Shown: positions 7,715 through 64,000 of the stretch, piece after piece
Position numbering within the stretch: the stretch's first letter is position 1
Layout: each line of letters starts with the position of its first letter
Source of the DNA: Balanoglossus misakiensis
Taxonomy: Eukaryota; Animalia; Hemichordata
Assembly: GCA_040954595.2 (NCBI GenBank)
Contig: CM082586.2
Location: 4,074,349 to 4,138,348 of the forward strand
Reading direction: 5' to 3'
Length of the DNA stretch: 64,000 bases
Notes under the pieces: model-generated
Told to the model about the DNA's origin: nothing
Database searches by the model: none
Seen by the model: only the letters and a program-made list of their open reading frames with translations
Made by a program: the position numbers and the translations under genes

Positions 7715-7987
7715 ACAGAGGCCCATAAGTCAACAAGTCGAAGCCGCAGTGATTTGTTCCCCTTTCTATCAGATTTTATAGTTAGCTGTCAGTCTCAGAT
7801 TGGGAAAAGATAGGAGTATATAAAGAAGTTTTCGGTTGAAATTGTACAAATAAACAAAAGAATTTGTAATATTGACACTCGCATTTGGTGGAAATGAAAT
7901 GTATCTGTATCAAGTCTATCTCTATTCTAATTCATCTGATTTTCTGTGTTACAGTCTTGTAGTGTGTACTGAAGTGTGCAAATCAAG

Positions 7988-15259: not shown

Positions 15260-16826
15260 ATGGAAGTCGATGAACGACTCCGTTGGTTAGAATCTCGAAT
15301 TACCTCAAGTCTACGGCCGCGAAATGATGATTTGAAGGCACTTTTTGCCAATGACGACAATAGGTACGTATACGGTGCGGTATAGTCAATCAATGTTCCT
15401 TGCAAATGAAAATTGTAAGTTATGATTTATGTTAAAGAAATGGAATATAATTGTGCTTATCCAGATGTGGAGTAACTATTTTAACCACTGATACACCAAC
15501 ATCATTTCTGATGTTCGTCTTTTTCTAAAGACACTGATTCGTCGAAATAGTTTTTGTTAATTTACATAATAATGTCACTTTGTCACAATCAACAAATCAA
15601 ATTAGTCAAAAAGTTTGACAAAAATTACTGTTTATTATTTCCAAGTTCCAGTGTTAATGTTCGGTTGAATACTTAAAAGACTATAATGGTTCATCTTTTC
15701 TTTTATCAGACACGCCTTCTTGGAATTCTGCAACAACGAAGATGTCAGGCGTTTGTTTGTATTTACAAAACCACCCAAACATACACTTTGTGCATCGCTC
15801 TACCCTCCGCACGAAGTCCGGAGTAAAGCTGTGTTCTTCCTCAAAACAAATCAAGCGTCCAAGTTGACGAAGGACAATATCAGAGAAGATGTAGTATATT
15901 CCGACTGTGATACAGTGACGTTACAGCAGTTGGATCTACTTGCCAAAGAGGTAAGTTTCGAGGGTTACATCCTTTAAAACTTTATTAAAACTCTATCTAG
16001 GTACAATATAGACATAAGGTTGAACACAAAAATAATGGGTGTTCTGGTAACCTAACCTGTGCTATTTCAAATTGGCCAACCCTAAGCTTTGTGAAAGGTG
16101 AAAATGGTGAAATTTGGGGTGAAAGGGTTAAACAAGGAATCACCACCCATATACCTCAAATAGATAAACTTGTTTACTACTTTTCTGTCTAGTTTTCAGA
16201 AAACATTTAATCCAGTTGTATGGAGTTGTATGCGACAGGTCTTTATTCACACTTATCAACTATTTCATTTTTTTCCAGATATATTTACCACTACTATGCA
16301 CAGATGGAGCACAGACATACGGCGGTGTGAGTTCTGATAAACTGATGGATGTACTTCACAGGTTGATGGGTACATTGGAAGTCACAGAGGGTCATGTAGA
16401 GGTGAGTTTATGGAATTCTAATTTTAAAAAATCAGGAGAATGTTTCACTTGCTGCAGATTTTAGACTTGGATTGCCTGAAAATGTTTCTGCTGGTAAGGG
16501 ATTTGAAAAATGGCTGCGTTCATAACTTTTAGAAAGTCTAAATATTGCTAAAATTTCTGACGATTTCTCCCTATTATTTTTTTTTTATCCATAGGGCAAA
16601 ATAACCCTTCCATTGCCATCCATTGAAGTCCTGGCTGAAGCAGCTGCTTTACCAACAAGAAGAGCTGCTGTAATCCACGTTTTAGAATCCTCTGTTATCG
16701 GATGGATTAAACAGATTAAGGTATGTGTGGATAAAAGAGATTAATATCAGTTTGTTATTGTCAGGTTTTCAGTGAACTCATAAGAATAATTATGAAAACA
16801 GATAGGGAGAGAGATATGGATGGATG

Positions 16827-16866
<40 letters not shown>

Positions 16867-25800: not shown

Positions 25801-28800
25801 AAGTAATAACGCATTAATCTCCACTTTCTCTTTTGTGTCTCTGTCTCCATACATGTTGCTGTGTTATCTGACTGCATGGCCCTGCATGCACTTCTGTGTA
25901 TATGTGTTTCTACACTAGAGTTTTCAGTGGTTTGTAAGTGTAACTTTAAAAATGCCTACTTGTAATCTCCTACTAGTATCGGCTCCAGTTTTCATTTGAG
26001 TTCTTTAAAATGTCACCAAGCAAAGTTAATGAACTTAACACAGCATTCATGAACACTGTGTTTTTGCTAAGGCTAAGGAACACTGATAAATGACTTGGGA
26101 ACCCCAGTAAAGCTCTTGCTATTGACTAATATGACTGCATTGATATACCAAGGGGAGCCCCGGTAAAATGACTGGACTCATATAGTACCTACTCATATAG
26201 TACATAAAACATTACAAAACAGCGTTTGGTATAAGGGATTCTAAGCTTTAATAAGGGTCTAACTTCTAACATACCAGTCATGTAGAGTCTATGTAATCCA
26301 CATACATGTAGTACACAAGTGTTTACAATATAGGTATGAAAAAAGCATCAACCATTTTCATATCAGTGATTTACTAACAACACTAGATTTCATTTTCAGG
26401 TACATAAACTAGCCAAGATCACAGTGATATTACTACCATTATTGCTGTACTGTCTCACTTTTGATGTCTGCGTATCTTTTTCTCAAACTGACACTTTTTT
26501 CTCGACATCCATCCTAACTGCATCATTCTATTACTTTTTTATACTTCTTGTATAAAAGGGCTTTGTTGATTTGATTGTCACCTCGGTAGGACTCCTTTCA
26601 CCTCTTGTGACTATTTGCATGTCTAAGACTTTCTTCAATTTTGTCTTTTTTTTCTTCTAAGTCTTGGTATTGTGTCTTGTCTGTGTGGAATTTTGAAAAA
26701 GTCACATCCAAAATTTAATTTAGTTTTACAGTTTTTTTTAATTAAAAAAGTAAATGCATGAATTTTTTTCCTTCGTTTTTGCACATTTTGGAGAACAATA
26801 TGAGATACATGTATCTCAAGATTATGATGATCTATCTTATCCCCTAAGACATGCATTTTAGAATACTCGAGTTTTTTTGGCAATTCCACTTTCATGGAGA
26901 TAGAGGTGATATATTCAAAGATATGATCGTTTCATGTTGAAACTAACTATGGCTGTTCCCATTTTTAGGATTTGATTGAATTGCAAGAACTGTTGGAAAC
27001 CGCAGTGGTCAACTTCACCATCATACCAGAGTAAGTGTCAGGTTAACTAGGGACTTTGGAGTAATGGTGAATAGAGTTTTCTGTGAATATACATCAAATT
27101 GAGATCGTTGGTTGCTACAAAGTGTGCCATGAATATTATTGTTGCTTTAAAATATTTTCACAACATGACTGACATTAATTTGTAGATGCAGACATGAACT
27201 GAAGAATTTGAAACAAGTCTGGGAAACTGTCAGGTAAGTTTACAGTAAATACCTTTATTTATTATTTGTTTATGTCAGTTGTAGTAATCCATAACTTGGT
27301 ATGTGAGTCGACTTGGTATGTGAGGAAATTGAAAGATTCAATGCAGTTACGAGTGGATTATTAGAGGTAGATATTTTGTGCATTAAATTTGATTTTTCCA
27401 AATTTTGGTGTATTTACTACGCTGATCAATTTTTTTGATTTGTCAGATTGGTCGAGGAACAACAAAACGAATGGAAGAGAGAACGTTGGCAGAAAATGAA
27501 CACCAAGTATCTGCGTGAAGCCACAAACGATCAGCTGGAAATGGTCAACGGTTTGTCTGAAGAAGTTCAACTCTGGGACGTCTACCTTGGCATGCAGGAC
27601 TCCATTCTTGTCATACAGGTAAACGTGAAACTGAATTATGAATGGTAGTTGAAACTAGCATTCCGTGCAGTCCTTTGACCCTTTCACCCCCATTTTCCTG
27701 TACAAAGGTCCAGCATTGCTTTTGAAAGCAATGGAGTTGGACCAAACCATGGTGTTGAAAAGGGTTAAAGAGACATTGGAAGGAAAGAATTCTGACTCAT
27801 CATTTCTTTGGGGTTACATGTTTATTTACTAAATTATTTCAAAGGCTAAACAAAACAAGAAAAACATTTCTTTGCAAAATCACATAAATTGTTATTCATG
27901 CAATGTACTTCTAAATATCTAAATGTATAATTGTTTATAATTTTAAAGAACGATTTGAAGAAAATTGTACGTGTGTTACATTTATTTATTTGTTTATTTA
28001 TTTTTATTTGTTTTTTTTTTTACAGGCATGTCTCCCATTGATTGATGATCTGAGTAATCCAGCCATGAGACCGAGACATTGGAAACAGTTGGTCAGAGTG
28101 ATTGGTGTCATGCTACAAATTGACAATGATAGTCTGAATCGAATGACACTGGGTCAGTTATTGCAGCTTGGACTACACAGTAAGTATATACTTGGATGTT
28201 GGGATGAGTGGGTAGGTTGGACCCTGAATTGACTTGGTAGAAGAGAAAACTGAATAGTCTTTGCATTTCTATGGAATGTGATAAACTGTACATGTCCTTG
28301 TTATAGACTTCTAGAATCCATGACATCTAAGAACAATTAATGTTTGATTGACAGATCATGTAGATGAAGTGAGGTCGATAGTCCACCGTGCAGTCAAGGA
28401 CGTCGCCATTGAGAGTGCCCTCAGAACTTATGAAGAAATCTGGCTCAGCAAAATCTTTGAGCTTCGTGCGCACGTGCGGAGTGCTGTTCCGGTTGAGGGA
28501 CCACCTGCGGAGGTAAGATGAAAATTATTAGATGCTTGCGTCTAATTATAACATGGCAGTGATAATACATTTGATAATGACTGCCATTTTGGGGGATTTT
28601 TTTTTAATTTGTCCACTAAACCTGATCGAATGTCCATCTCCTGAATTATTAGGATACGGCCACCAAGAGTGAAATGAGTGACTCGGACATGGACAAAGAC
28701 AAGAGTCGGGCCAACGTGAGCAGACGAACGCAGAGTCGCATGTCCAGTGTGACAGGAGGACAGAGTCGAAACAGAAGAACAAGCGTCTCTTCTCTGCCGG

Positions 28801-31800
28801 CATCTTTGTTGAATCTCGGAGATGTAAGTTTTGTCTGGTCTTTCTCTCTGATGGCACTCAACTCACAGTAAAACCTCTATTGAATCAAACACATGGTCAA
28901 ACATCTATTAAATTGAACATACTGTAAAACCCCTATTAATGCATTCTCTTTCAGCGACAGTGGCAGTGTTTTAATACATAGTGTGTTCTAATTGCAACAT
29001 GCAGCTACAATCGGGCATCGATAAGCTGTTCATGTATACCTATCAGTAAGCTTATTTAGATGGACCAATTTACGTTGGAAATTAAAATCATGTAATAATG
29101 CAAAAAGTGGCAGTTCTAGGGTCTTTAATGTATCATTCTGTTGTTTTGTTTTCAATATTTTACATTCAATGACCAGGTGTTGAAGGTTTTATTTCTTCCT
29201 ATATAGACCCACACAATAACATGGGATCATTATCGCACAATGGAGATGGATAAACTTGTTTGTTGGTTCTTTAATTCATTGCTAATATGCGTTACCTTTC
29301 TCCATGTTTTCTTTTCTCCCTGACTGACCTCTGACCTCTACAGCTAAATGTCCTTAATGTAAGTAAAGATGGTGGCATGACTATCGCAATAATGTCATGT
29401 TTTAATGGCTTTTTGGTCACAAATCGTAAAATGTGCTCTTGTAGTTGTACAATCCTCCCATGCATGCTGCACCCACTTCCTGTTCACCTTTGACCTCTGC
29501 CAATTCAAACCAAGTAGTCAGGGCAACTACACACAAAAGTGTCCATATTTAATTTTTTTTTCTGCACGAGTCAGTAGTGTTTAAAGTAATGTCAGTTTTC
29601 TAATAATGTCAAAACTTATTAAAATCAAATATTCAATTTTACTTAAAAAAAGAGAATATTGGATAGAATTTAGAGATGGTTTGAATATACAGAAGTTTTG
29701 AGATGGGCAGTATGTCCTCACATAGCTAGAATTCCTGCATAACTTCGTACACAAATCTTCGTCTAGAGCAAAAGCATTCTGTTTATTTGCCTATCACTTG
29801 TTCCCCAGTCTTTTCCAGCCATAATGACTTTAAAAATATATTCTTCTAACTAAGCCATCAAAACTACTACTTCTAAAATCTAGCCACCACGAATTTTAAG
29901 AGAAGCACTTTTTAAAATACATGTAGTACCATTTTGCTCAAATGAAAACTGTGATAGTGCATTCTCAATAGTTAATTCTCAATAGTGTCTTCTATCGTAA
30001 GAACGATTAAATCGTTCCTATGTCATTTCTGTGACTACTTTTCCAGCAAAATACTTGACAAAGATTCTCACTCATCTTTCTGACGTTAGTTAGATCTCAA
30101 ATATTGACTCTTATTTTCCACAGTGAAAAAACTATACTCATTGTATTATGTTCCTTTAGTTAGTCTTTTTATATAAATACAATGGATCCTTGCTAAGATG
30201 CGATCTCTATAAGTTGACTTATGACTTAATGAGGGCCCAGTGTATTCACTTTCATAAATCTTGCACACTGCTTTCAGTAAATACAACTTGAGTAATTTGA
30301 CATGTGAAGTGTCTTCAATATGGCACAATGCATAGTGTAATTTAAATATATTATTGCAAAATTGTAAATGTGTGCTGCACCGTTGCCTCTTTATCGCTGC
30401 AGTAAAATCCCATTTTTTGGAAAATACAGTGAAATGTTGTCTATACATGTCTATACATGATTCCTGGGATAAATGTGCAGAGATATTTCACTGTATTTTT
30501 CCACACAGTTCCATTCACTCACCACATAGTTATTTTTTTGCAAATTTATTTTAATTTTAATTCAGACAAGATCACCAGTAGGTGTGCTGCGGAATAAAAC
30601 ATTGCATGTAGGTTGTGGTTCAAGTAATTACGCATAAATACTGCTCACATCACAGAATTTGACAACACCATGTTTATTGCTGTCGCACACAAGTACATGC
30701 ACTTTAAATGTATAGTTGTAATTTTATAATGGTACCTTAGCTGTAACTTTTGCTATGTTTTCAGTCTTTTTGTTACGGCTGATTTCCCTGTATTTTTACA
30801 CCTCACAAGCCATTTTATTTCACATGCCTTTCCACCAGCACACACGTGTAGGATCAGCAACCACTTGATTTAAGATCACAGCCTGCAGACAGCCAGGTTT
30901 TGCCAAGCACACACTCTGCATTTATAAGATCCAACATGTCCGATGCACAGGATTGGACCAACATTTCCTTCACAAGTCAAACATTGTCATCTTATTCCTT
31001 GCACTGTGCACAAATTTTAACCCCAAGTGAAAGTGCTTTTGGAAAAAACAACAACACACATTCAAGAAAACTCAAAATGTCAACAGTTCTACTACTACTT
31101 GTAGTATTATATTGCTAGATCAATCAGCAGTTACATTCTATGAAATATTACTCGAATTTCGTTATAGTAAATAATTAAAATAACACTAAAATCTATGAAA
31201 ATCGTTCTTTCAGACTGTAGAATTTTTAGCTGGAAATGTTGTAAAATTTCTGCTGCATTCTGCGCTGTGTAATGCTCTTTCTGTGGCTGGCTCAGTTATT
31301 CTGAGCACTGACTTTCTTTGCTGTAGGACAAATCCCAACAGATACTCTTCTATTTGGTCATAATCTTCTCAGAATGGGTAGTGGCCCAGGCTATAGTTTC
31401 GTGGCCAGCAGCTAAGTGGCTTGCTGGTAACTGGCAAGTAGCGTAGTGAAAAGCAACTTTGTCAACCGTGGCTTATAAGTTGCGAGCATCTTCAAGACCT
31501 GCAGCTGAGTAGCAGCTGGCTAACAGTTTAAAGAAAGATAAGGGAGAAAGAGAAACTAGCTTGCTCTATGCTCAAATCTGTCAAGGTGTTAAGTTTTTAT
31601 TAGGTCGTTCTTGAAATGATTGGGTGTTCGTCACATAAAGGTATCAAATCTATTTGACCATGTTTTTGAAACCTCTTCAGGAGACTGGCGGATTATTTCT
31701 CCTCCACGACACGGAGCCTGTCTTTGAGGAACTGGAAGCTCACCAGGTGTCCCTGCAAGCCATGCAGAACAGCAGCGTGGCCGGCTCCTTCCTGGATGAG

Positions 31801-37323: not shown

Positions 37324-37383
<60 letters not shown>

Positions 37384-49300: not shown

Positions 49301-52300
49301 GCAAGAATACACCCAGTATACCCGGGCATTGGTCAAAATCATGGTTGGGGATAAGGTGTTACAGGAATGGATTACTAAAGGTGATTATGAGTGTATTATC
49401 TGTGGATAGATTTGAGCTTTGGTACCCCTTCTATGATAAACTGATTCCCCCCCCCCCCCAAAAAAAAAAAAAAAAAAAAAAAAGGTAAAAATTTGATATT
49501 TTATGCGCAGGTCTAAGCCCGCGTGAAATCGAGAATGCGGCCATCTTGCAGACGTCATGGCAACGGCCGCCCCTGATCATCGATCCTTACATGAACGGCG
49601 TCAAGTGGATGAGAAGATCTGTTCCCAGAAGAAGTAAATTAATCTGTGTTGACATGCAAACAAGGTCAGTCAGTCTCTCATGTCAAAAAGTGACCTTATC
49701 ATTCTTAACATATTCCTCCATGTGCTTTGTAGCGAGATGACTTTGTCTTCGTCACTCAGTATCCATGGATACAGTGTATTCAGCAGATCCGGCTAAACAT
49801 CAAAAGGTTTATAAATATAATGATGAAATTCACACAGACTTTAACAGCTTGCAAGCAGTTTCCCAAAATGTATTGGGGCTTTGTCTTTCAATAAATATTC
49901 TCCTCACAGCAATTATGCCAGGTCTTTACCTATGCTTGGTATATTCAATGAAATGAGTGTTAATTTTTATGTTTTAAATATTTCCCCTTTTCTTCCCATG
50001 GACATGCACTATTCAATGTTATAGATGGTATGTATGCTTCTTTTCAAAGAGTCACTTTGAATGGCTTTTAATGCATGGCATGCTGATCATTTGGGGGTAA
50101 ATCTAATTATAAATGGATGGTGACAGTTATCAGGTTTAAATCAAGGAATTTGGTGTTTTCATCCAGAGATAAGAATGAGTTAAACAAGACAGACAAACAG
50201 ATAAACATACATAAATGCATATGTACATAGTTACATTACATATACATGTGTATGTACATGTATATACGTACATGCATAATACAGACATACATGTCATTCC
50301 CCCCAGACAATCTTAGATTTTCTGGTCCACCAGAATGAATATAAAAGTTTGGACATCAAAGCGTATTGGATGGAAATTATATGTGTCATGGAAAACTTTC
50401 ATAATCATACGTGTGTCTCATGTTCACTGACGTGTTTGCTGTTGTGTTGTTTTATGTGTAGTTTATAAAAGTTGATTTGTCTCTTCAAATTCATTAATTG
50501 TCACTGCCGCATTTTAAGCTGGTGACTGTGATGTATACAGCCTGTTTGTACCAGGACTATTGGGTCATGCAAGCGTGCGTGTTACATACCTCAGGTTCAT
50601 TCCAGACTTGCCCTAGGTATAGGTCTCTACAGACTCAGTTTCTTGTCAATCCACTGGTTGTGATGGACGATTAAAATGTTATATTCACAGGCGACACCAA
50701 GAAGTGCAAACATATTCCAAAGACAAGTATGAGTTGTAAGCATTTGTTCAGGATTACCGTAGTCTACCCACTGGTCTGCAGTTGGCAAACGCATTTTCGG
50801 TCGGACGTACACACATGTACAGATTAATTTTGACCGCAGTTTAGTCGCTATGGTGATGTAGTGACAGTGAAGAAACATCAGTCCATCATTAATGAGAATA
50901 TAACCTCATAGTTGTCTGTGTGATTTCAGTAACACTCTAACACATGTCTAACGGTAGACTAGTTTTTACAAATTTGTATAACAACACATTCACATTGACC
51001 GATACTTATCCATTCACTTTTTTTTTTGTGATGAGAGATGATGTAACAATTATAAAATTCTAATCCTGTTTGATCTAACCTGACTCAAAATGTGATTTTG
51101 TTTTGTTTATTTTGTCAATTTTAGATCATACAGTATATTTAGTTTCAGGCATTGTTGCACCACACAATCATTCATTTAATTTTATTGAGATTTTTAGTTG
51201 GGTGTTCTCTAACATGTTTTTATTGATTTTGCACAAAACTATACTTTTGTTTAGACCATTTTAACACATTTTTCAATTGCTTACATACAGCTTAAGTGAA
51301 ATGAAATGGGGGTAGGTGTTCTGTTCGCACATCAGTGCTCTGTATTTGGCCTTTTTTGTTGAGTTTTTCTCGCTTTTTTTCTCAAAATCAATCTCCATTT
51401 TATTCGTTTTTCACCTTGAGCTTGATGTATGTGTTTGTTCTTTTTTGCCTCCATTTTAATACGGCACCTACTACATTCATGACAGCCTAACTGACTGGCA
51501 GCGTCTAAAGTCTCACAAAGCACCATCATTGCATCGCACTGCCATTTTAACTTCGATAATCGAGAAACATGTTACAAATCCAATGGTCAACGTATTAAAT
51601 TAGAGACATACATACTGTCAGACATACATACTGTCAGAAGTTTGCATCTAGGTTCTTGCGTCCCTTTTGCTAATAGGGACTGAGTTATCCAGTTTTCAGT
51701 AGAGAAGGGGGGGGGGGAGGGAGAGATAGAGAGGGAAGGCTGGGGGAGGGAGTGGAAGAGAGTGACTTTGTATCTCTAACCATGAACTTTTCTCTTCAAC
51801 AGGTAGCAGTTTATTCTCTCATTTGTATGCGACTAACACCTTCTGATAAGATAATGTGTAGTCCATGCTACACATAGAAGGTACATGTACACATGACTGA
51901 CAGAGCTAGAGCTTGGCAATGACTGTTGTCTTGTTTCGTCGCAGGTTCGATCCTTCCATCATCGTACAGATTGAGAAGGCCATTCTGGGTGGCCACCCGG
52001 TGCTGCTGATGAACTGTGAACCTCACGTAGACAGCATGGTGACCCCGCTCATCCATCACAGAAACACGGCCAACGAGAAAGATGAAAAAGAAGGTATGTT
52101 ACCCCCTCACAACACCCCCATTTTCTAATGGTATCACCCTAATGTGGACAGGGAGAGTCTATTGGGACATGCGGGTAGGGGTATCCATTAGGGTCGATGA
52201 ATTGGGTTTATTGAGTTTTCATTGGTGGTATAGACACGATGTTCAGTGTCTCTTAGTGTCTGCTCTCATCAATTTGGTCATGTCCATTTTTTATCATGGT

Positions 52301-55300
52301 AGTGTTATCATCTCACACATATTACCTATATTATCTGACAAGAACAAATCTAATATGATAGACAATATGAACTTCTCAGAAAATTAAAGTTTTCCGTCAC
52401 GTAATTGAGTTGAATGGTAATGTAATCTGAGTTTTAATGCTTCCATAGTCTGTAATTGTAAGATAATACACAACGATTATATCATTTCTTGTAAATATTT
52501 TATATAGATTTGTTAAAAAATGATTAGTCACACATTTTGTGTCTTCATGTTAAAGATATTTCTTTTCTCAACAGTGTGATGTTCTTGAACACTCTAACCT
52601 GATCCTTTCTTTTTGTCACTGTACTTTGTGTTTTACAAACTATTTCTGTACATTGTCTCCCTCTCTCTCGATGTCATCAAGTTTTCTTCCTTTTCTATTG
52701 TTCTCATCAAAGCCATCACACGCCTGACCTGACCTAATACCAGTTTCCCACCATTTGCACTTCATTGTTACCAATTTTGTGCAGTTCATCATCGCTTTTT
52801 GGGCTTTTATGTCATCATATTCTGTGCTCACCGTCACCAAAATTACAATATGCCAGCTCCCTTCATCACCAAGCATGGAGTAGTGTCATTGACACTGTCC
52901 ATTGTGATGATGATGATATCATCAATAATCGCGCATTTCATCACCAGTTATTGTGCACTTTGTCACAAAAAGTTGTGCGATGTATTATCAGCCATGGCAG
53001 TGCGCATCACCCAATATTGGGCTTTCTAGCACTGTCATAGAGCAGTTCACCATCCCGCATACTTACCTTCTACATCATCAAATTCTGTGCACTTCATCAT
53101 CACATTCTGTGTTCCTCATCACCAGTTCACGAGCTTATCATCACCATGCATAAATCATCACTCTTTATCCAAATCATAGTCTCTTTCGTTAGCAGTCTAT
53201 TTTATTTCAATTCTTAATTGTATATGTTCACTCAAAATCTGTGTAATATGCAGTGTTCTCCCAAGAAATTTCTGGGTTGCCAATTCACAACACGACCTAT
53301 TAAAATGAAAATCAAAATTTAGGAAATTTTACCACTGTGCTGTAATTATCGATGGGAGAACACTGTTCTTTATCAGTAGTTTTTTTATTTATCTAACCAA
53401 GTGTGTTTTTTCTCTATCATTACTAATTTATTGCATGACCTCGGTGTGAACTATATATTTTATACAACTGGGTATTGGTAAAATAAAAATGTGTGTGCGG
53501 TGTGTAAAACGTGCATGCAGCGTTACTCTCCAACTTTGACAACTACGTGGACGGGCTTATCAACTCCATCATGCAGGCCCGAACCCAGACCAATGCTAAA
53601 GAAAAAGAAAGGAATAAGGATGAAGGTATTCCTTGTCACGTTTGTCTGGCTGAGCCTCCCAGCCTCCCCCTCGGTTGGGAATACGTGTAGTTGTCAGACA
53701 CATTGCTGGAACCGAGCACGGTTGTACGAGAGACATCACCGCTGTGTCGATCTCAGACTTCTGCATTGAAACACTCAGCCCTCCCCTGTGCAGAGTCTGA
53801 AATCGATGTCAGTGATAGAAGCCCTGTCGCTTACACTTAAGTCAATGTGTCTGGGAATCAGTATTGCAAAGGCGTATTTTTCGCTGATTGGTCAAGTTTA
53901 GTGGTTGTAAGGTGAAAATTAAGGTGTCAGTGCACAAAGTTTAGTGGTACATGTAAATCTAATGTAATATCGCTTCTGTATTGTATGCCTATTATTATAT
54001 AAAATAACACTTAAAATTTACATATGCATGGTAAATGTAAAGCTTAATCAAAAGTAGTAATGTAGATAGTGTAATAAATTAAAATGATAACCAGTTGTTA
54101 TTACTGAACTACATTGACTATATGACATGAGATAAGGCAATAAGTAAATACTCAGTGGTATTAACCCTTTTACCCCCTTTTCTCTGTATATTGGTTCAAC
54201 CACACCATTGGAAACAATGGGGTGGTACCAAATTCTGGGGATGATAGGGTTAATCACACTCACATGTCAAAGGTCAATGACCAGTTATGAACTGTGATGC
54301 ACAAAATATATGTACAAGCTCAATGTGTGCACAACACACCACATCACAGATCAAAATCACTTCTGAACCATTCAGAGTTTATCATTCTCAGCATCGTCAC
54401 AGTCACCTCTTTGTCACTCATGAATCAATTTTATTTTATATTGCACATAAATTGTTATTTATTTATTATGTATTTATTGATTGATTCGTAGCATGTGAAA
54501 GAATGTTGACTGTGGTGTGTGCAAGTCAGAGTGTAAAAATATAGAATTTCTGGTAGTGTTTGTAAATCTGCACAAATCTTACTAACACTTATTGCACTGC
54601 AGTGTATCGTAGACTTCAGTATCAACCTTTTCCTGGTCTTTGTCTTCACAGCAATTAAAGTTTTCTGTCTTATTGTCTTCGTACTACATTGACAATCTTC
54701 CCATCTTTTCCCTCCCCTCCCCCTGCCCCTCCCCTTCCTACTACTCCCCCCCCCCCCCCGCCCTGCCGTACCCCAAACCAGTCCATACATGTATAAAGAG
54801 CACCCCCCAAAAATATTGTTGCATGATGACGCCATTTTGTGGTGTTGGCGGGTCATAATTGGTTGCTATGGTGAAGGGTGATGTCATTTGGTGGTGGGTC
54901 ATGACAGTTGCTATGGTGAAGGGCAATATTGTAATAGAGGTGGCGGTCTATGGTGATTGGTGATTTTGTTTGGTGGTGGGCTGTTCGTTGCTATGGTGAA
55001 GGGCAATATTTTTATTTCAATCACTTGCATGCCCTCAGTGTTCAACGCTGTGCAAGGTTTAATCAGCCCAATGATTAACCCTTTCACCCCCAGTTTCCTC
55101 TGTAGAGGTCCAACTTTACATAGAAAACAATGGATTTGGACCAAACCATGGTGGTGAAAGGGTTAAAAAGCATTACTTGCACAAACAGCAGACGAATGTC
55201 ACAATCATGCTACCTGCTACACTATGTAATAACGTTCGTCAAACTGCACTCATTAGTAAAGTCATTGCAATGAATATATTTTACATATGCGCAGTGTTTG

Positions 55301-58300
55301 TCTGAATGAAGTCATTGCAAATAACCGCAAAATAATCCTACACTTATTTGCTGCAATGATCAATTGTAAGAACTCTAACTTCGCCCTAGTACAATATTAC
55401 TGTACACTGAAACACTGCAATTTTTTGTACAATTCTCATGGATATGTTATGCTTATATGCTGCCCCATGTTCCAAAAATAATTTGGCTTAAGACAATATT
55501 GTGACTTGTATCTGATTCACACATGTAGTGTGAAGAGCTGAAAAGGTTCAAGCAGCCATCAAGAAGTGCAGATACTAAAATCTCATCCATGACACTTTTC
55601 CCGATTCACAGAACCCCGGATGATCCGATACTCCAGCCGGCGTCTCCTCTGTCACGAGAACTTCCGTCTGTACATGCAGACCGGCAACGGCAGCGCGACG
55701 TTCAATCCGGAGGTGTCGTCCACCTCGGCTCTGATCGGCTACACCACGTCGGCCGAGACCCTGCAGGACGAGTTGTTGAGTCGAGCTTTCGCAAGAGTCC
55801 GTCCCGAGCTTTACATGGAGAGAAAGAAGGTTCTCAAAGCTATTCAACAACACAGAATCACCCTATATGTAAGTTGGACATAAATCAATGTCTTTAGCCT
55901 TTTCTCATCAATAATATTGTTCAAGGCATCTAAAGATTATTCCCTCATAAAATTAGGAATTAAAACTGAGGGTGGACACCGTGCAAAATTTTGAATATGA
56001 GAGCAAAATTGTTTCAATTTTGCAATTCAAAATGGCCGCCTATCTCTGCAATATCGAGATAACACAGAGATTTGTTTTCAAAAAGAATCCTCATATGCTT
56101 TAATATGGCAAAGAATTGAAAGGTTTGGATGACTGAAAATCAGATTTTATTATAAACTTTATTTTCTAATTATCATTTTCAGGATTTGGAGAATCTCCTG
56201 ATTGAGAAACTGAAAGGTGAAAAGACGGACATCTGGGAGCAGACTGAGTACGTGTCGGCCATCGTGGACGCCAAGGAACAAGTGGCCGGGAAATTAGAGG
56301 AAGCCCAGCAGGTACTTGGAGAGTTGGATCAACTGCAGGAGGAACTGTTCCCTGTGGCAAAGAGGGCAGCTCTGCTCTTCTCTATACTTCGCAGCTTGGA
56401 GGGAATTCAGCGAGAATATATCTTTGCTCTGCCGTTCTTCTTGTCGTTGTTCGACAGAGCCGTGGGCGAGGAACCACCACCTGAGGAAGAGGAGGAAGAA
56501 GATGAAGACGTGAGTTTTTTTTATGATGATTGGAACTTCAGTTAATTTTGATACTATAACATTTGGTATGCTACTTGCTTTCACAAAACAATCCAAATTT
56601 GGCCACCAAAGAGTGACACACTTCTTTGGATATTTGGAGTTGAATCTTAATCTGAAGTTACCCCTGTTATACAAACAATGATATATGCCCTGAAATGAAT
56701 AATTAATAATATATCTTTCAGGATGATGAGTCAACTGCCGAGGATGAATTACACGCCCTGTTGGCCAGACCTGTCAGTGTCTCCACCAAATGTTCTGACG
56801 AGCAAGACCAAGAGAAGAAGGACGATGATTATGCGGATGAGAAATTTGATGACGACGATGATGAGAATGCGGAAAAACCAACTCCGAGAGAAGGTCAGTC
56901 AGAGGTCATGAGTATTGAAAAGTAGTTTATTTATTGAACTTTCGGAAACAGTGGCTCCAACTCAGTAATGTTCGCTGCTGTGTTTTGGTCATGTTTAAAA
57001 AAGGATTCTTTATTTTCTGAAATGGTTCAGGTGGGGAAGCGGGAAGTCCAACTGAAGCCAACAAAGCTGCTCAGATCTCCGTCCCAGACGCCCCTCAGTT
57101 ACCGACAGAGGGAGTGGATTACAACAACATGTCCGCCAACCAAGTCAAACAGATCCTGGACAGTCTGACGCAGACGGTCTTCCAAAATGTCAGGCAGTAA
57201 GTAACATTTTTTTTAGGTGAAAAATTTGGCATTGCAAGATTTTTTTGTTGTTGTTCAGTTCTTGGTGTTGTTGTTCTTGTTAGTGCCCATTTGGTATATG
57301 TATTATGTATATACCATTGGGACCTTATGGGATCGGTTGCGTCTGTATGTATGTCTGTACGTACGTACGTACGTATGTATGTCTGTACGTACGTACGTAC
57401 GTACGTATGTATGTATGTATGTATGTATGTATGTATGTATGTATGTATGTATGTATGTATGTATGTATGTATGTATGTATGTATGTATGTATGTATGTAT
57501 GTATGTATGTATGTATGTATGTATGTATGTATGTATCATTGTATGTATCATTGTATGTATCATTGTATGTATGTATGTATGTATGTATGTTTGTTGTTGT
57601 TGTTGTTGTTGTTGTTGACAAACCGTAAGCACACTGTATGACAACTCATCGTTTCTTATTTCTTGTAGGAGTCTATATGAGGAGCATCGTCTACTCTTTG
57701 CCACAATGCTGTGTTTGAATATTCAGAATGAATCCTCAGATCATTTCGCAGAAGAAGAAATGGCTCTTCTCTTACAAGGTAGGTAATAGATTGGCTCTAC
57801 CATTCAATGGCATGGTGTGGAAGTCATCAAATTTGCAAGAGTTGTTTAGCCGGCCATTTTACTTGTAGCATGATGTAAAATCAGTGTTGAAGTACATGTA
57901 TGTTATTTTAATGGATAGAATGTGTTCCAGTACAAGTCTTCATTAGTAAAATCATTAATGATACACAACACTAGGAGAAATGTACTTACACATTTGCTAG
58001 TAGTTGTTCTAGTGTTCATTGACAAATGTTGGTGTCCAGGGACAATTTTATAAGTGCCTTTAAATAAAAAAAAATTATAAATTACAGCAAGCATTAATCA
58101 ACATGCAAATTGTGAGTGATAACTTAATTCCATTGTATCTCATTTCTCTAGGCAACCCTGGCTTCGGTAACATGGTTCTTTCACTGGCCGATTTCGACTG
58201 TGATGAACCGGTGCCACAATGGCTGCCTGTCGACAAATGGGATGATGTCATCGCCATGTCCGTGTTGCCGGGACCCCTGGATAGTCTCTGCGTTCAGGTA

Positions 58301-61300
58301 GCGGAAAACAGCGAGGAATGGGAAGCCTGGTATAAGACCGACATGCCGGAAAATGAACCGTTGCCGATGTTGAGCTCGGAAGAGACAACACGTGAGTAGT
58401 TCTTTAACAAGATTTGGTTTTTTTTCCTGTTGTTTTGTGTTCCGAATGTCAAGCATGGTGTCCACACTGATTACTGTTTTCTCTAATATACATATATGTC
58501 CATTTATGGTTATATGGGTGTTTCAATCATTACAAATGATCATGTAGGGATGGATGCCCTTTTTCTAACATGCACTTCAAGTGAAAATATGTGATTGGCT
58601 ACATCTCAGTAGTAAACTTTATAGTGATCGAGTCGTGTTGAGAAGTAGACATGGATGTTCAGTGAAATCATGTATGTTTCCTATATCTTGAACACATCAA
58701 TGCATTGTGATTTCTAAAGGAGTGTGGCCTGAATATTCATAATTAACACTTTATTATCATTTTGTCATCTCGACAGAAGAAGCTGGTCAAGCCAACGATG
58801 ACGAGGGAGCAGTGACCAACGCCAGTCCGGACCTCGGACCGATGACCGACTTCCACCAGCTGCTCATCCTGCGCATGCTGCGTCCCGACCGCCTGCCCAT
58901 CGCCATGGCGAAGTACGTCAACAAGCACATGACCAGCGTCAAGCATATAACGCCGTCGATCAGCAGCATCCAGGGCAGTGCCAACACGTCTCTGGGCATC
59001 CTGGTGATGATGCCCCCCAAGGCTGAACGCGAGCATTTCATCAGCTCCATTACTTTGAACACGCACCCGGTGGAGATCCTGAAACAACTTGCACAGGTGA
59101 GATTATTTTGACCCCTGTCATCCAGTTTCGGCAGACAAGATCTTCTTGTAATCATTGCGAAAATGTAAACCCAAATTTCAGGAAACCAGTGAATAAATTT
59201 AACAGATGCAATGCTGTGATCTAAGAAGTTAATACAGGTTTTTACTGTGTTACGGTGGTCACAACATAAACTACATACATTGTTGGATTTTGCAAACGAT
59301 CACTATGTTCAGTACTAAACAGACCTGCACTGAAATGAAAATAATGATCAGTAATATTATATTGGCTTTACTAAAGACATCACATAGAATCAGTGCAGAA
59401 AATCAAAAATATGTCTGTATACATGAATATGTACACCCTATGGTTTTGTCTGGATGCTTTTGCTGTGCTTTCTGAGTTTATGATACAAAGAATAGTGATT
59501 CATCATGATGATTTCTCTATCTGTCTGTGCATGTACAGTCCAAGAACATCCCAATTGACGTTGTCAACATCGCTGAGGGCTGTGAGGCAGAGGCTGATAT
59601 TGTGATCGACATGGCTGTCAAGAACGATGGATGGGTTGTTCTTCAAGATCTGCATCTGGCATCGCAGAGATTTTCTAAGGAACTGCGACATCACTTGATC
59701 CGTGTTGGCAACACTGGTGGTGAGTGAAATAACCACATGAGTCCTGCTGTCTCAGTGAAGAAAATGAACTCTTTTAAATCCAAAGAAATCTTAACGTGTA
59801 CAATTTGAAGAATCAAGAGAAAGTTCATGGTCACTGTTTAAATTTTTGGCCCGTCTCAGTGAACTGTACTGTAGTTGAAATTCAAAGTTGCCTTTAAATT
59901 CTATTTTTATTCTACTGTTTTCTAAGTCTTCAAATGGCCATGTTGAGGCACATATATTGTTCATGGCCAGCCCTTGAAAATCTGTCATTGGTTAGATGTC
60001 CCATTACCTTGGTGTAACTGTGGCTAAGCTTGCATACATGTTTAGATGACCATATACCTTTAATGTAATTTTGTTTTCAGGTCCAATGGGTTTGAATCCT
60101 ATTGAGAAAGAAGGCACCTCAAATTTCCGTGTGTGGATAACATCGCAGCCGAGTGAAGACATTGCATCAGCGTTGTTGCAGTCCTTACGCGTCATCAACT
60201 GGGACAACATTACACCTGCGTTGTTGGTTGGTGGAACTGAAGACACAGATGGTGCTGATAATGAATTCCAAGCTAACACTCTGCAGGACGTCTTGAAGAT
60301 CGGTGAGTCAAAACTCTGTCTTGTCATCAAATAAATGTATCCATATGGAAAGGCAATAATTGTCAAAAATGAAAGTAACTGACAAACAAGTCATGTTCAC
60401 TATATCCTGTCCCTTGAGAAAATGATCTATCTTTTATCTTTTGTTGCGCACTGTAAAACTCTGTCCCAGCCTTTTACATCCATTTTTTGTGTAGTCACCA
60501 AACCACATGATAAGAAACAATTGACTAAATCACTTCTAAGAAAATGTTATCTGAGAAAGCAGATGCAAAGCAGATGTCATATTGAATATGATGGAAAGCT
60601 TTTGTCTTTATGTGTCAGTTTGCTGTGTCTGTGTGTTTTAACCCTTTCCCCACAATGGTTCAGTCCAAAGCCCATTGTTTCCTATGATAAGGTTGGTCCT
60701 ATAAAGAGGGAAGTTGGGGTGAAAGGGTTAATCTTTACAATCGTCAAAGACTTTCTCTTACTGACAGTGGTGCATTTCCTCATTTGCAGCGATTGCATCG
60801 GCTTTGGATTCAGTCTCGGAGTCCCAGTGGAATCAGATCCGTGACCAGTCCAGCGCCGTCAAAGGCATGGTGTTTGGAATCTGCGTCGTCCACGGCATTC
60901 TGGTGGCGCGTCAGTCCTACGGTTGCCGTGGCATCTCCCAGTGGTACGCCTTCTCTCAAGTTCAAATACAGCAAGCCGTTGAGGCCGTCGCTGGTCCGTC
61001 TGCCAAAGCAGAGGGCGGTTCTGAACCCAAGCTTCAAGATGTGATTCACAGCCTCACACAGGTAATGCAGAAAACATGATTTTTATTTCCGTCAAGTCTG
61101 TCGTCGCTAGCCTGTATAATCACCATTATCTGGTCTTGTGTATAGTGTAGATTCATCGACAACGGGTTTTCTCTTGTCGACGTTTCAATCAATTTTGATT
61201 GCAAAAAATGTGTGCGATTTGGAACAGTGACAAGGAAAAATGCTGTTGTACCAAGCTACTGTGCTGATTGGAATTATTTGCTAAATTTTTATTTTTCTCA

Positions 61301-64000
61301 TGTCCACATTTCAGTTGGTGTACGGTAACTTGATTCAGAATGACTGGGACAAGCTTTATGTGGAGACTATAGTCAGCCATGTGATGTCAGCAACCAGCAG
61401 CCAATCAGGGAACCTGATGCTGGGCAGTGTTGCCATAGGAACCCCACCAGCCAATGTCGACCCAGCTAACTACAGCCAGTGGCTGTCTGAGAAGTGGTTG
61501 AACGAGGGCAACTCGAGCGATGCGTTGTCACTGGATTTCAGTGTGGAGAAACATTACAATCAAACAAAGTAAGCAAAACTAAATTCCATGAAATTGCACT
61601 ACATCTGACATCTTGCTATAGAAATATGATTGTGTATTGCTGTGGACACCCTCGCCAATCTAGTTAATGTAGAACACTGTAGTAGTCTGAATGCACCATT
61701 TTATTCTGGACAATGTCTATCTAAACTACACCTTACTCAAAAAGACAAGCAACATGAACTGTTCCTTTCAAATCGTAGAAATATTTGTTTTAATTTTCAA
61801 TCATTTCTCTCCTCCGCGCTATGTAGAACATGCAAATCAAAATAAAACTGATGAAAGCTAAATGTTTACGTTTGATTGCAGTGGCATCGACTTCTTGAAA
61901 TACATCGACAAACTATACGAACTACAACATTCAGGACCACACGACCACAGAGTCCGACTTCACATGAAGAAAGAAATGGACACGTATCGATTGCAGCATG
62001 CCATGGACATGGTTATCGAACAGCTGCCTCCGCTGCTGGAACTGGGAGCGATCCCGGATCAGATCCTGAACGAGGGCTATTCATTCCCGTATCACGTACC
62101 CTCCATCATAAGCTTGGCCAGCACAGTGGTTGACGAGATGCCGGAAACATTCGGATATGTGCTGCTACAGGTGAGTTGTACAATTTGAATTCATGCACAA
62201 ATCCCTGAAATTAGAAGCAGCCAACCGTAGCGTTGACTGGGCATGACAGCAACTGAAGATCCTAGTATACGTAGGTCGTGGCGACTGCAGTGAGGTTTGT
62301 ACTGGTATGGGAGGACATATTCTCATCAAGGGGGACACCCACGCGGTGCAACGACCCCTTCCCTTTAAATGATAATAATGCTGATTACTACAGAGGGCTG
62401 TGTTGCGAAAACCAAACACTAAGTAATAAGCCCAGGGCTGGAGTTACTTGGGTTTCAATCACCATGGCTTTTAATCATATTCTAACAAAACATGCACTAT
62501 GATTATTTGCAGGAATGCCATTGGCTCAATGCTTTGCTGTGTCATGTACGACAGTCTCTGCATGAATTGGACAAACACATACTCGGTGGCGAACATGCAA
62601 TACCGCAGGAATTTACAGAAGTGACCCAATCCCTACAAGAAGAATTTGTGCCGATATCATGGATACATCCTCTAAGCCAACCGACCACACATTCACTGCT
62701 GTCATGGCTGAAAGGTTTGTGTAGTTATCAAATCCTTTTACTATAGCGTGTTGACATATGGAGACATTTGCCTACAAGGCCTGATAGAAATTTTTGCCAA
62801 TCATGAGCTGTTTCAGGGGGTTACCGTGATGAGACAAATACACTATATATATAATTGAATTCATTTTTTTTTATTTCTGTTGTAGATTTGAACAAACGTC
62901 ACAGTCAACTCAAGCAGTGGGTGAAGGAAGGCAAAGTTCCAACCAAGAACAATAAAAACGACGGCGCTCGTGGTGAACTGACATCAGTCTGGCTTGGCGG
63001 TCTTGTCAACCCCAACGCTCTGATTACCGCCCTCAGACAAGAAAAAGCGGTCATTTCTGGCTGCCTTCTGACTGAGGTAAGTCACTGTGTAACAAAAGTT
63101 TACAGCCAGGTGTGCTTGTAGTTAGTCTTGAAAGGTACAAAAGTCACGTTTGACATTATTTTAGTTTCTTGTGGTAGTTTATTTATGCGTAGCTGACTGA
63201 AATATGCTACATGTCTGTTTTCTGAATTTTCGTCAATGCGGAAAGTAATCGTGACAGTTTCTATCAATTTCTGCAGGCCAAGTTATTGCGTTTAATTAAC
63301 TTTTAATTACTCGCAATTGATAATGTCTTGTAACTTGCTTGGCAGGTTGAACTTGAGTGTGATGTTTCTACGTCCATCGATTGTGACTCATTTGACATTG
63401 AACATGAAGGTGGAATGTACCTACGTGGGCTGTATCTCCAAGGTGCATCATGGGATATCCAAAATGGCTGCCTCTCTCCACCCAAGTAAGTCTCTTTGAC
63501 CAATCAGTGATGCCGTTACATCATTAAAACAGCTAGACCTTCTGTATGTATGTAGGCTTGTCTTGCATTCAGGTTTTGACCCTATTATTTTTGTATTCTG
63601 CTTTCCAGGACCGAGTTAAATTTGATGCCCAGTGTGTACATCCGACCAGTTGTGAAATCCACTGCGACCGACACCGACCAAAGCGAGCAACAGGATGTTG
63701 GATATTTTGAGTGTCCGGTTTGTGTCAATAAAGCTCGTCAAATCACCGCATTCACTCTACGTTTGAGATGTCCATTGCCGGTGGAGCAGTGGAAACAAGC
63801 AGGCACGGCCATCGTACTTGATCCAGGTAAGTTTCATTTCACACATCAGTGTTTCTTACAAATTGTAGCAACCTCTAAAATCAGCAGAGAAAAGCATGTA
63901 CTTGACACTAGACATGTTTTACCCAAAATGTAAGAATTTTAACATGTGAGAATATTTGTCTTTTTAGGTGCTCCTGAGGACAGCGTGAAGAAATCCAAGG
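15260..64000 (+). CDS. Divergent axonemal dynein heavy chain, outer-arm beta-like, 3'-partial; 94 coding exons, ~16.4 kb CDS, ~5,450 aa in window; AAA1 and AAA4 nucleotide sites degenerate
   Basis: Hand-spliced exons from 15260-15363 to 63968-64000 keep codon phase throughout. Dynein landmarks occur in order: N-terminal DERLRWLESRITSSL; tail FMERCNDVLELVQT; LSNPAMRPRHWKQL; linker KFPRFYFLSLEDVLHII; FDWKAQLQYQW; YGYEYMG...VVTPMTER; YMFNCS; AAA2 GPAGCGKS; AAA3 GDSGCGKT and VDDLN; FLPTAERCHYIFTLRD; stalk/MTBD; AAA5 LLMNC and NFRLYMQT; AAA6 GWVVLQDLHLA; C-terminal GMYLRGLYLQGASWD and FECPVC. Confidence 0.93.
16824..17015. repeat. (GACA)n plus GA/G-rich low-complexity tract in a dynein intron
   Basis: Direct reading. 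Confidence 0.9.
20104..20198. repeat. (ATTC)n microsatellite
   Basis: Direct reading. Confidence 0.97.
23291..23326 (+). other. Candidate 36-nt cassette exon of the dynein gene
   Basis: AG acceptor and GG|GTAAGT donor; phase 2-2, open frame (R)LQTQINHINVFG. Confidence 0.5.
25919..25933 (+). other. Candidate 15-nt microexon (SFQWF) of the dynein gene
   Basis: ctacactag|AGTTTTCAGTGGTTT|gtaagt within a phase-0 intron; long pyrimidine tract and TGCATG motifs upstream. Confidence 0.45.
27675..27768. mobile_element. piggyBac-like MITE copy
   Basis: ttga-CCCTTTCACC...GTTGAAAAGGG-ttaa; same family as the copy at 55075. Confidence 0.75.
29344..29358 (+). other. Candidate 15-nt microexon (LNVLN) of the dynein gene
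   Basis: Pyrimidine tract with ctgac branch-like sites, ctacag|CTAAATGTCCTTAAT|gtaagt, within a phase-0 intron. Confidence 0.55.
34573..34763. repeat. Intronic tandem duplication of a ~90-bp unit (two copies plus the start of a third)
   Basis: agaaatatttgtgtgatggtttatttcact...ccacactgcataacacatct at 34573 and 34666. Confidence 0.9.
35344..37168 (+). other. Dynein AAA1 region (exons 35344-35487, 35972-36101, 36224-36553, 36773-36874, 37043-37168) with substituted Walker A, Walker B and sensor residues
   Basis: AGLCVSPN|WCGSRETIQEL aligns without gaps to canonical SGAPAGPAGTGKTETTKDL; GAWICLSNIDYI aligns to GAWGCFDEFNRI. Confidence 0.88.
37325..37382. repeat. (TGAT)n microsatellite
   Basis: Direct reading. 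Confidence 0.95.
43814..43906. mobile_element. piggyBac-like MITE copy, opposite orientation to the 55075 copy
   Basis: ttaa-CCCTTTCAC...GGTGAAAGGG-ttag. Confidence 0.78.
45606..47926 (+). other. Dynein stalk coiled coil and microtubule-binding domain exons
   Basis: SLDTTSLAELRSMQKP...DLTWSKGAKRQMANMDRFIDELMGFD...YLKKTSFIPENM...GSLCKWLRGVIRY...KVKPL matches the MTBD helix pattern. Confidence 0.85.
48324..48497. mobile_element. Tc1/mariner-type MITE-like element
   Basis: TA-flanked imperfect inverted ends tactgtaaaacctgtctaaa...tttagattgattctacagta; related ends near 28866, 33484 and 43278. Confidence 0.55.
50025..50027 (+). other. Candidate 3-nt microexon of the dynein gene
   Basis: tttccccttttcttccc...tgcac...gttatag|ATG|gtatgt within a phase-2 intron; would insert one Trp. 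Confidence 0.35.
53251..53365. mobile_element. Small element with 12-bp terminal inverted repeats (CAG...CTG ends, hAT-like)
   Basis: CAGTGTTCTCCC...GGGAGAACACTG. Confidence 0.55.
53521..53625 (+). other. Candidate 105-nt cassette exon, paralogous to the 3' half of dynein exon 51945-52093
   Basis: gcag|...GATGAAG|gtattc, phase 1-1, open frame ALLSNFDNYVDGLINSIMQARTQTNAKEKERNKDE, resembling VLLMNCEPHVDSMVTPLIHHRNTANEKDEKE. Confidence 0.6.
54161..54253. mobile_element. piggyBac-like MITE copy (diverged)
   Basis: ttaa-CCCTTTTACC...GATGATAGGG-ttaa. Confidence 0.7.
55075..55166. mobile_element. piggyBac-like MITE, best-preserved copy (84-bp body plus TTAA target duplication)
   Basis: TTAA-CCCTTTCACC...GGTGAAAGGG-TTAA with a perfect 10-bp TIR. 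Confidence 0.85.
57345..57617. repeat. Compound (TACG)n/(TATG)n/(TTG)n microsatellite
   Basis: Direct reading. Confidence 0.97.
60638..60731. mobile_element. piggyBac-like MITE copy
   Basis: TTAA-CCCTTTCCCC...GGGGTGAAAGGG-TTAA; the body matches the copy at 25567-25657. Confidence 0.8.

Follow-up and report, generated by a model that had tools for sequence, protein, structure and literature searches.

What remains of a dynein heavy chain once the site that powers its stroke has been rewritten in a gene that otherwise looks whole? The question arises from the plus strand of a 64,000-nucleotide stretch of the genome of the hemichordate Balanoglossus misakiensis (hereafter, the window, to which all positions refer), where an initial annotation made from the sequence had described an intact but catalytically dead dynein heavy chain, conserved as a non-motile structural, braking, or scaffolding protein.

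Gene structure and nucleotide sites of the window protein

The gene extends from 15260 to 64000 (+). We modelled it by combining tblastn matches of eight orthologues with a coding model and correcting over-extended junctions by hand; a first-pass model of 5,596 aa, with over-extended exons and two spurious micro-exons, was dropped. The spliced model joins 94 exons, the last cut at the window end, into 16,354 nt and 5,451 codons with 0 stops; of its introns, 92 are GT-AG and one is GC-AG. The model search disallowed stops, so intactness was judged by separate, independent checks—orthologue alignment, exon identity, off-frame stops, and GC3. Residues 1-5449 are covered by a single BLAST alignment to a 5,936-aa sea-urchin orthologue at 56.7% identity. 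When each exon is compared with its best match among 10 orthologues, identity is 40% or more in 89 of 94; the other five are low-complexity inserts. Stops occur in 175 of the 188 alternative exon frames, and GC3 is 0.55 in the coding model versus 0.36 in the introns. A Saccoglossus fragment, found with one exon, is 74% identical to the window protein over 901 columns. The 94 in-phase exons without a stop over ~16.4 kb that had been reported at first sight are thus borne out by the spliced length and the end-to-end sea-urchin alignment.

A decaying pseudogene or an artefact of gene modelling could also present long frames here: the gene model was built on genomic DNA, it was barred from containing stops, and its five low-complexity exons fall below 40% identity to orthologues. 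We consider this extremely improbable in view of the full-length sea-urchin alignment, the Saccoglossus alignment, and the existence of orthologues in at least 34 further animals as far apart as coral and frog. Moreover, five assembled records of 16.9-18.2 kb hold an entire 5,295-aa coral frame, which suggests that they are spliced transcripts. A metagenome scan with exon 20279-20569 gave 293 pattern matches, with no relative among them.

Several further features of the window were recorded in passing. The sole GC-AG intron of the dynein gene lies at 45420-45605. A BTB-BACK-Kelch (KLHL-like) gene with Pfam BTB, BACK, and Kelch_1 matches occupies 7973-9995 (+), divided between a long frame at 7973-8959 and another at 9060-9995, and a weak Neuralized-repeat match at 1629-1994 (-) fell below the cut-off (E 0.002). 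Minus-strand frames at 311-2492 have, by eye, repeated acidic segments in common. Finally, a frame at 11450-12307 (+) that is rich in cysteine and precedes a hydrophobic stretch had no Pfam match; by eye, it resembles a TNF-receptor-type gene.

The domain order of the encoded chain, all on the plus strand and with approximate boundaries, could be followed from end to end. Searches with nine single exons recovered Pfam families of the tail, linker, AAA1, AAA lid, AAA4, stalk, AAA5, AAA6 lid, and C-terminal domain, three of them below the curated cut-off. The tail (15260..27185; aa 1-1387), with an N-terminal dimerisation domain and helical bundles, is of the outer-arm-beta (class 4) type, as judged from DHC_N1 on exon 20279-20569, the tail tree, and alignment. 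It is followed by the linker (27186..35050; aa ~1388-2160; DHC_N2 on exon 31681-31890), which carries low-complexity insertions, and by AAA1 (35365..38425; AAA_6, Saccoglossus fragment model), whose fold is predicted intact and whose catalytic site is degenerate. The AAA2 H2 and PS-I inserts are retained, and AAA4S, at 71 aa, has the canonical length. The stalk (45657..48229; Pfam MT) is likewise of canonical length, with a CC1 of 104 aa, a microtubule-binding domain (MTBD) of 123 aa (~46367-47545), and a CC2 of 118 aa. By alignment with canonical beta chains, an acidic insertion of 143 residues (48250..49305) marks the start of AAA5 (49366..58860; AAA_9), which includes the buttress helices and then a ~92-residue acidic insertion (~56462-57105). 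AAA6 and the C-terminal domain (58861..63826) are represented by AAA_lid_11 and Dynein_C, both below the curated cut-off on single exons, and exon 94 (63968..64000) supplies the first codons of a C-terminal extension that is interrupted by the window end. An intact gene with every domain from tail to C-terminal domain, as first described, is therefore what we find, with the correction that the gene runs on past the window.

Placing the nucleotide-site motifs on the spliced model by alignment, we found all five AAA1 substitutions of the initial annotation at the positions it had given, in a register against canonical motifs that holds in multiple alignments. Walker A reads SPNWCGSR in place of GPAGTGKT (35479..35986, split by an intron at 35488-35971); Walker B, LSNIDY in place of FDEFNR (36238..36255); sensor I, TMDSA in place of TMNPG, followed by a 14-residue insertion (36388..36402); sensor II, WSLQT in place of WGLRA (37069..37083); and the arginine finger that AAA2 contributes to AAA1, LSKVG in place of VSRAG (40026..40040, with Lys at 40032-40034). 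Of the elements of an active axonemal AAA1 (GxxGxGKT, DE, sensor I Asn, sensor II Arg, and arginine finger), the window protein thus has 0/5. The AAA2 P-loop GPAGCGKS (39004..39027) and the AAA3 P-loop GDSGCGKT (41114..41137) are intact, and by alignment the AAA3 Walker B, DDLNL (41617-41634), is Asp-Asp, as in canonical axonemal chains. To the AAA1 lesions can be added the AAA4 P-loop, AEGCPGLAS (44067..44093), which has lost its lysine.

A different exon supplying GPAGTGKT or FDEFNR would change this picture. A six-frame search of the window was negative for GPAGTGKT, FDEFNR, TMNP, WGLR, DEFN, and CFDE, and tblastn of canonical AAA1 against it matches only the substituted exons; thus, the window contains no alternative AAA1 exon. 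In a structural model of the Saccoglossus AAA1-AAA3 fragment (pLDDT 77.5), for which the structure matches listed are dyneins, the AAA fold is kept, so the site appears altered rather than unfolded. Without AAA1 hydrolysis, a dynein makes no power stroke. The account in PMC2533788 describes AAA1 as the main hydrolytic site, whose mutagenesis abolishes motility and linker swing, and the Walker B Glu as required for hydrolysis. Going by its motifs, AAA1 of the window protein is very probably catalytically dead, from which we infer a loss of motility.

Class membership and decay of the motor across animals

Orthologues of the window protein were found in echinoderms, amphioxus, gar, lungfish, newt, frog, brachiopod, annelid, nemertean, molluscs, flatworm, and coral, and no amniote, teleost, arthropod, or sponge member was among the matches listed. 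The full-length orthologues measure ~5,250-6,200 aa and bear labels such as "dynein beta chain, flagellar outer arm-like", "dynein heavy chain 9", or "uncharacterized". The motor-domain phylogeny that had been proposed as a check recovered these chains as one clade (79 rows, FastTree, SH 1.0; 28 rows, IQ-TREE, 100/100), in which the window protein is sister to the echinoderm chains, as it is in the tail tree. In the 28-row tree, computed under LG+G4 without a mixture model and with long-branch joins flagged for the class-12 and dynein-2 pairs, the clade is sister to outer-arm class 4 with support of 98/99. The window tail is nested inside class 4 (44 rows, SH 0.999), scoring 188-442 bits against class-4-type rows versus 41-141 bits against class-3-type rows. 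The suggested origin from an outer-arm beta-type chain is accordingly upheld by motor and tail alike.

Is this a class already catalogued, as the initial annotation had allowed? Kollmar's text (Kollmar 2016, PMC5100056) characterizes class 13 by a class-4-like tail, a longer AAA5, a low-complexity C-terminal extension, and a motor-domain clade of its own. The tail of the window protein groups with class 4 in both tree and bit scores, and its AAA5 exceeds that of canonical beta chains by 143 aa at the start and by 68 and 24 aa after the buttress. A polar C-terminal extension of 119-736 aa is present in 26/28 animal orthologues and 0/3 canonical chains, and the window holds its first 10 residues. 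The clade also stands apart from classes 1-9, 11, and 12. For class 12 and DNAHX we used coral chains as stand-ins, chosen by length, tree position, and insertions (P0017/P0291/P0293/P0297); a union of the window clade with these class-12 rows was rejected (AU test, p 0.0001), and so was a clade with mammalian DNHD1 (class 11; p-AU 0.024, with one DNHD1 row partial), which forms a separate branch in the trees. In the portions of PMC5100056 that treat sea urchin, the non-canonical chains are DHC11-13, and Table S3 gives one class-4 gene; since the window clade is neither class 11 nor class 12, DHC13 is left by elimination. It is highly likely that the gene belongs to Kollmar's class 13, an assignment made from his described features and by elimination. 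The chain thus does fall in a catalogued divergent class, although not in that of DNHD1, which had been named as one such chain.

Kollmar's text calls class 13 "Currently specific to metazoans" and notes basal non-animal orphans (PMC5100056). The core of the clade is animal in our trees as well, and a chain of the ichthyosporean Chromosphaera perkinsii (P0077, at 100/100) and the record P0118 branch basally to it. Because an ichthyosporean member sits at the base, the class-13 lineage would, on tree position, be older than animals and not strictly metazoan. P0118 at the base of class 13 and a second record, P0111, which branches with class 12, are both long single-frame chains with an altered AAA1 Walker B; they are possible non-animal members of a class 12/13 pair.

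We then scored the nucleotide sites in 35 animal species, the window included. Two AAA1 losses are universal: the Walker B Glu (0/35) and the Walker A Thr or Ser (0/35). The Walker B Asp persists in 5/35, the sensor I Asn in 3/35, the arginine finger in 8/35, and the sensor II Arg in 2/31 (4 of the 35 rows being unmapped). The window protein, with none of the scored AAA1 elements, is among the most decayed members. Loss of the Walker A lysine, which according to the initial annotation abolishes motility, is true of this protein but no hallmark of the family, as 26/35 animal members keep it (the flatworm Walker A alignment being uncertain); with the lysine kept by most, the locked state may differ among lineages. 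AAA2 and AAA3 retain GK[ST] in 35/35 each, and the AAA4 Lys is found in 0/33. The Chromosphaera chain keeps the Walker A GKT, Walker B Glu, sensor I, sensor II, arginine finger, and AAA4 P-loop, and its Walker B Asp is replaced by Lys. With this half-decayed chain at the base, AAA1 decay would have been stepwise and completed in the animal stem, and the chain offers a snapshot of a motor turning into a structural part. Some drift in AAA1 motifs was also seen in amphibian DNAH8 (P0098, P0236, and P0241; toad and frog), as in AAGKT, DEFSR, and TMSPK of Bufo gargarizans, with Lys, Thr, and Glu kept.

Class 13 might nonetheless be a slow or rewired motor in which residual hydrolysis at AAA1 or AAA3 still cycles microtubule affinity. 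Intact AAA2 and AAA3 P-loops in every member, and a linker, buttress, and stalk that are all retained, speak for such a motor. Yet the catalytic Glu and the Walker A Thr are both gone from AAA1 in every animal member examined, and AAA1 is relaxed relative to the rest of the chain; since AAA3 Walker B has Asp for Glu (Asp-Asp) in 33/35 members, AAA3 is unlikely to take over from AAA1. We regard a residual motor as very unlikely.

The microtubule-binding domain, a candidate partner, and possible roles

The part of the chain under the strongest constraint lies at the far end of the stalk. Among 20 segments compared across 14 members, the MTBD is the best conserved, with a mean identity of 0.69 versus 0.46 for AAA1L; the tail is strongly conserved too (0.55-0.60). 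MTBD identity exceeds AAA1L identity in 91/91 class-13 pairs versus 0/59 canonical pairs (0/15, 0/28, 0/10, and 0/6 in classes 3, 4, 5, and 6); the pairs are non-independent and the canonical sets reach across deeper taxa than the family set, but the direction holds regardless of depth. Invariant columns number 43/119 in the MTBD versus 15/162 in AAA1L. The Glu/Arg pair of MTBD helix H1 is kept (Glu 30/32, Arg 32/32), and in a stalk-MTBD model of a sea-urchin (Lytechinus) orthologue (pLDDT 86.5), whose top structure matches are dynein stalks, the coiled coil runs without a break to a helical tip. One departure is consistent: of the two prolines described as invariant at the stalk-MTBD hinge in the text of PMC4579568, the CC1 proline is missing in 32/32 animal members (window 46271-46330), with a Leu-Pro motif ~15 residues upstream in 28/32, and it is retained in the Chromosphaera chain. 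This loss may change the angle or stiffness of the stalk, through which, with the buttress, ring state is coupled to microtubule affinity according to the text of bioRxiv 10.1101/152645. The class-13 MTBD probably still binds microtubules, although its conservation could also serve a different partner.

The loss of AAA1 residues in all animal copies, combined with an MTBD that is the best conserved segment, points to a passive microtubule clamp as the likely role. In this scheme, AAA2 and AAA3 would hold nucleotide and keep the ring folded; AAA1, not hydrolysing, would permit no power stroke and leave the ring fixed in one state; and the MTBD would grip the doublet in a single affinity state, without cycling. 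The tail would dock with class 12 as half of an outer-arm-like heterodimer, class 13 providing the microtubule contact that DNAHX has lost, and the pair would act as a passive tether, a drag element, or a locked transport form. As a whole, the reading of class 13 as a chain that has lost AAA1 catalysis, with a normal stalk and conserved MTBD, serving as a non-hydrolysing clamp and probably tail-paired with class 12/DNAHX in motile cilia or sperm flagella, strikes us as evenly balanced between right and wrong.

A locked chain could serve assembly instead. Held in a weak-binding state, class 13 might act as a template on which DNAHX or some other dynein is packed as an autoinhibited phi particle and so carried by intraflagellar transport, its MTBD being kept for contact with a protein and not with a microtubule. 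Such a role has been put forward for DNAHX (Chai et al. 2025), a ring with Walker A Lys in 26/35 and catalytic Glu in 0/35 could trap ATP, and the AAA2 H2 and PS-I inserts are retained. Against this template, the MTBD is canonical in length, fold, and H1 Glu/Arg pair, and DNAHX, the template proposed, let its MTBD decay, the opposite of class 13. We consider an assembly or transport template unlikely.

Kollmar's text proposes a class-12/class-13 heterodimer from the tails and argues for concerted duplication of dynein heterodimers (Kollmar 2016, PMC5100056). In the DNAHX dimer of Chai et al. (2025), the second heavy chain, which the authors could not name, shows an extended stalk of the canonical kind and lacks the AAA4S insertion; class 13 matches both features, with a canonical stalk and an AAA4S of canonical length. 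Their mass spectrometry lists "DNAH17" at 34.83% and a minor "DNAH9" at 3.18%, and "dynein heavy chain 9, axonemal" is the NCBI name of the Strongylocentrotus purpuratus class-13 chain (XP_030834564.1), whereas Kollmar's text gives sea urchin one class-4 gene; from this we infer that the minor "DNAH9" may be the class-13 chain. By our own arithmetic, the six chains listed account for 94.4%, so that DNAHX and the single-headed chains together make up 5.6%, a share that would allow a near 1:1 ratio. Chai et al. themselves favour DNAH6/7 as the partner; 60% of their DNAHX particles are monomeric, and the class-13 chain goes unnamed in their mass-spectrometry text. Pairing in a phi particle also calls for a ring in the pre-powerstroke state, and class 13 of sea urchin is without the Walker A Lys on which ATP-driven ring closure would depend. 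The Lytechinus variegatus orthologue models are cut short, at 4,257 aa (XP_041471110.1) and 2,115 aa (XP_041470146.1). Two truncated reference models from this species (P0254 and P0256) share their N-terminal start and lie on a record of the same length, which points to a tandem gene copy or to duplication during assembly; in both cases the chain could be concealed in proteomics. In two proteomic studies of dynein modification (PMC10605206; bioRxiv 10.1101/2025.03.10.642390), the parts of the running text considered make no mention of class 13.

A complex predicted for two coral N-termini, aa 1-345 of class 13 and aa 1-362 of class 12, scored 0.43, versus 0.10 for the best of 3 controls, in a run made without alignments on chains from different corals and in which class 12 is not separable from canonical DNAH5/8. 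Runs agreed in at least 11% of contacts, with a partner pLDDT of at least 63. The mark used is passed by 51/78 solved complexes and 2/108 mismatches, and among eukaryotes by 39/65 solved pairs without a like complex and 2/126 unrelated pairs; at scores of at most 0.60, however, the benchmark holds only 5 of the 78 solved complexes and all 4 passing mismatches of 180. Such a pass would more often be wrong than right unless the pair is likely beforehand, and because outer-arm structures are already solved it may reflect mere likeness; as modelled, it weakly supports the pairing. All told, class 12/DNAHX as the partner of class 13 is a reasonable candidate that we place just below an even call.

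Alternatively, class 13 could take the place of the normal beta chain beside canonical DNAH5/8 in some outer arms and tune the beat as a brake. Its tail is of the class-4 type, and class 4 normally partners class 3; its stalk has canonical length, and the complex prediction is blind to which family member it docks. But class 12 arose from class 3, with which it groups at 100/100, by a duplication just as old, a pattern more simply explained if the whole pair was duplicated, and the text of PMC5100056 argues for concerted heterodimer duplication. A dead substitute for beta therefore seems improbable to us. Pairing with class 12 leads to a broader reading, which we offer tentatively and doubt somewhat more than we believe: that the entire outer arm was duplicated before animals and both copies became engine-less, class 12 (DNAHX) losing its microtubule foot and class 13 keeping and tightening it, so that class 13 would be the second dynein-X chain, masked in the published sea-urchin data under the minor "DNAH9" entry by reference models that are incomplete and wrongly named. 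If true, dynein-X would be a wholly motor-dead outer-arm mimic, a clamp or brake in aquatic animals, and not an inner-arm dynein carrier. Class 13 is in any case a named candidate for the second heavy chain of dynein-X, testable with existing mass-spectrometry and cryo-EM data.

Comparison with known dyneins

Neither class 13, described in 2016, nor non-motile dyneins as a kind are new, the latter including DNAHX and, in the text of PMC8754002, DNHD1. Our searches of the open literature yielded no study that addresses what class 13 does or the state of its ATP sites, and in its available text Kollmar 2016 (PMC5100056) leaves the ATP and microtubule sites of the class unanalysed and treats it as a motor with altered properties. 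With class 13 as that text describes it, the window protein shares the class-4-type tail, longer AAA5, low-complexity C-terminal extension, and an animal distribution that includes sea urchin and molluscs; our analysis differs in finding AAA1 and AAA4 degenerate family-wide and the MTBD to be the most conserved domain.

The closest solved structures by sequence are those of outer-arm beta chains (class 4: DNAH9/11/17 and Chlamydomonas beta), and no DNAHX or class-13 entry of the PDB was among the best 60 of 88 sequence matches. These class-4 chains, ~21-32% identical to the window protein, form its sister group and share its domain order and stalk length. Unlike it, they have intact AAA1 elements, AAA4 Lys, and CC1 proline, and no AAA5 insertions or C-terminal extension. 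DNHD1 is also an orphan heavy chain without the AAA1 Walker B catalytic residues (Chai et al. 2025; our alignment), but it forms a separate branch (joint clade p-AU 0.024) and is ~20-25% identical to the window protein over short stretches only.

The nearest functional parallel is DNAHX of dynein-X (XP_041462850; Chai et al. 2025, bioRxiv 10.1101/2025.01.18.633724), likewise full-length, outer-arm-derived, degenerate in AAA1, and found in aquatic animals up to amphibians. From its matching features, we equate DNAHX with Kollmar's class 12, although the preprint text is without the name "Kollmar". The window protein shares the degenerate AAA1 of DNAHX/class 12 and is not DNAHX itself: its Lytechinus variegatus orthologues are XP_041471110.1 and XP_041470146.1, not XP_041462850, and its residues mismatch at the four positions cited for DNAHX. 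Nor is it a class-12 chain of class-3 (DNAH5/8) descent, which the trees oppose (union p-AU 0.0001). The coral class-12 candidates (5,240-5,279 aa) show class-3 affinity, an AAA4S longer by 46 aa, a CC1 longer by 41 aa, and an MTBD about twice the normal size with no Pfam MT match; for AAA4S, CC1, and MTBD, the window protein has 71, 104, and 123 aa versus 117, 145, and 253 aa in a coral candidate. DNAHX thus combines a DNAH5/8-side origin, a kept Walker B, an AAA4S insertion, and a broken stalk and MTBD, whereas the window family combines a beta-side origin, loss of the Walker B Glu, no AAA4S insertion, and a clean stalk. What seems new is a class 13 that reads as dead in all animal members examined, with its MTBD more tightly constrained than any other domain—the inverse of the pattern in DNAHX.
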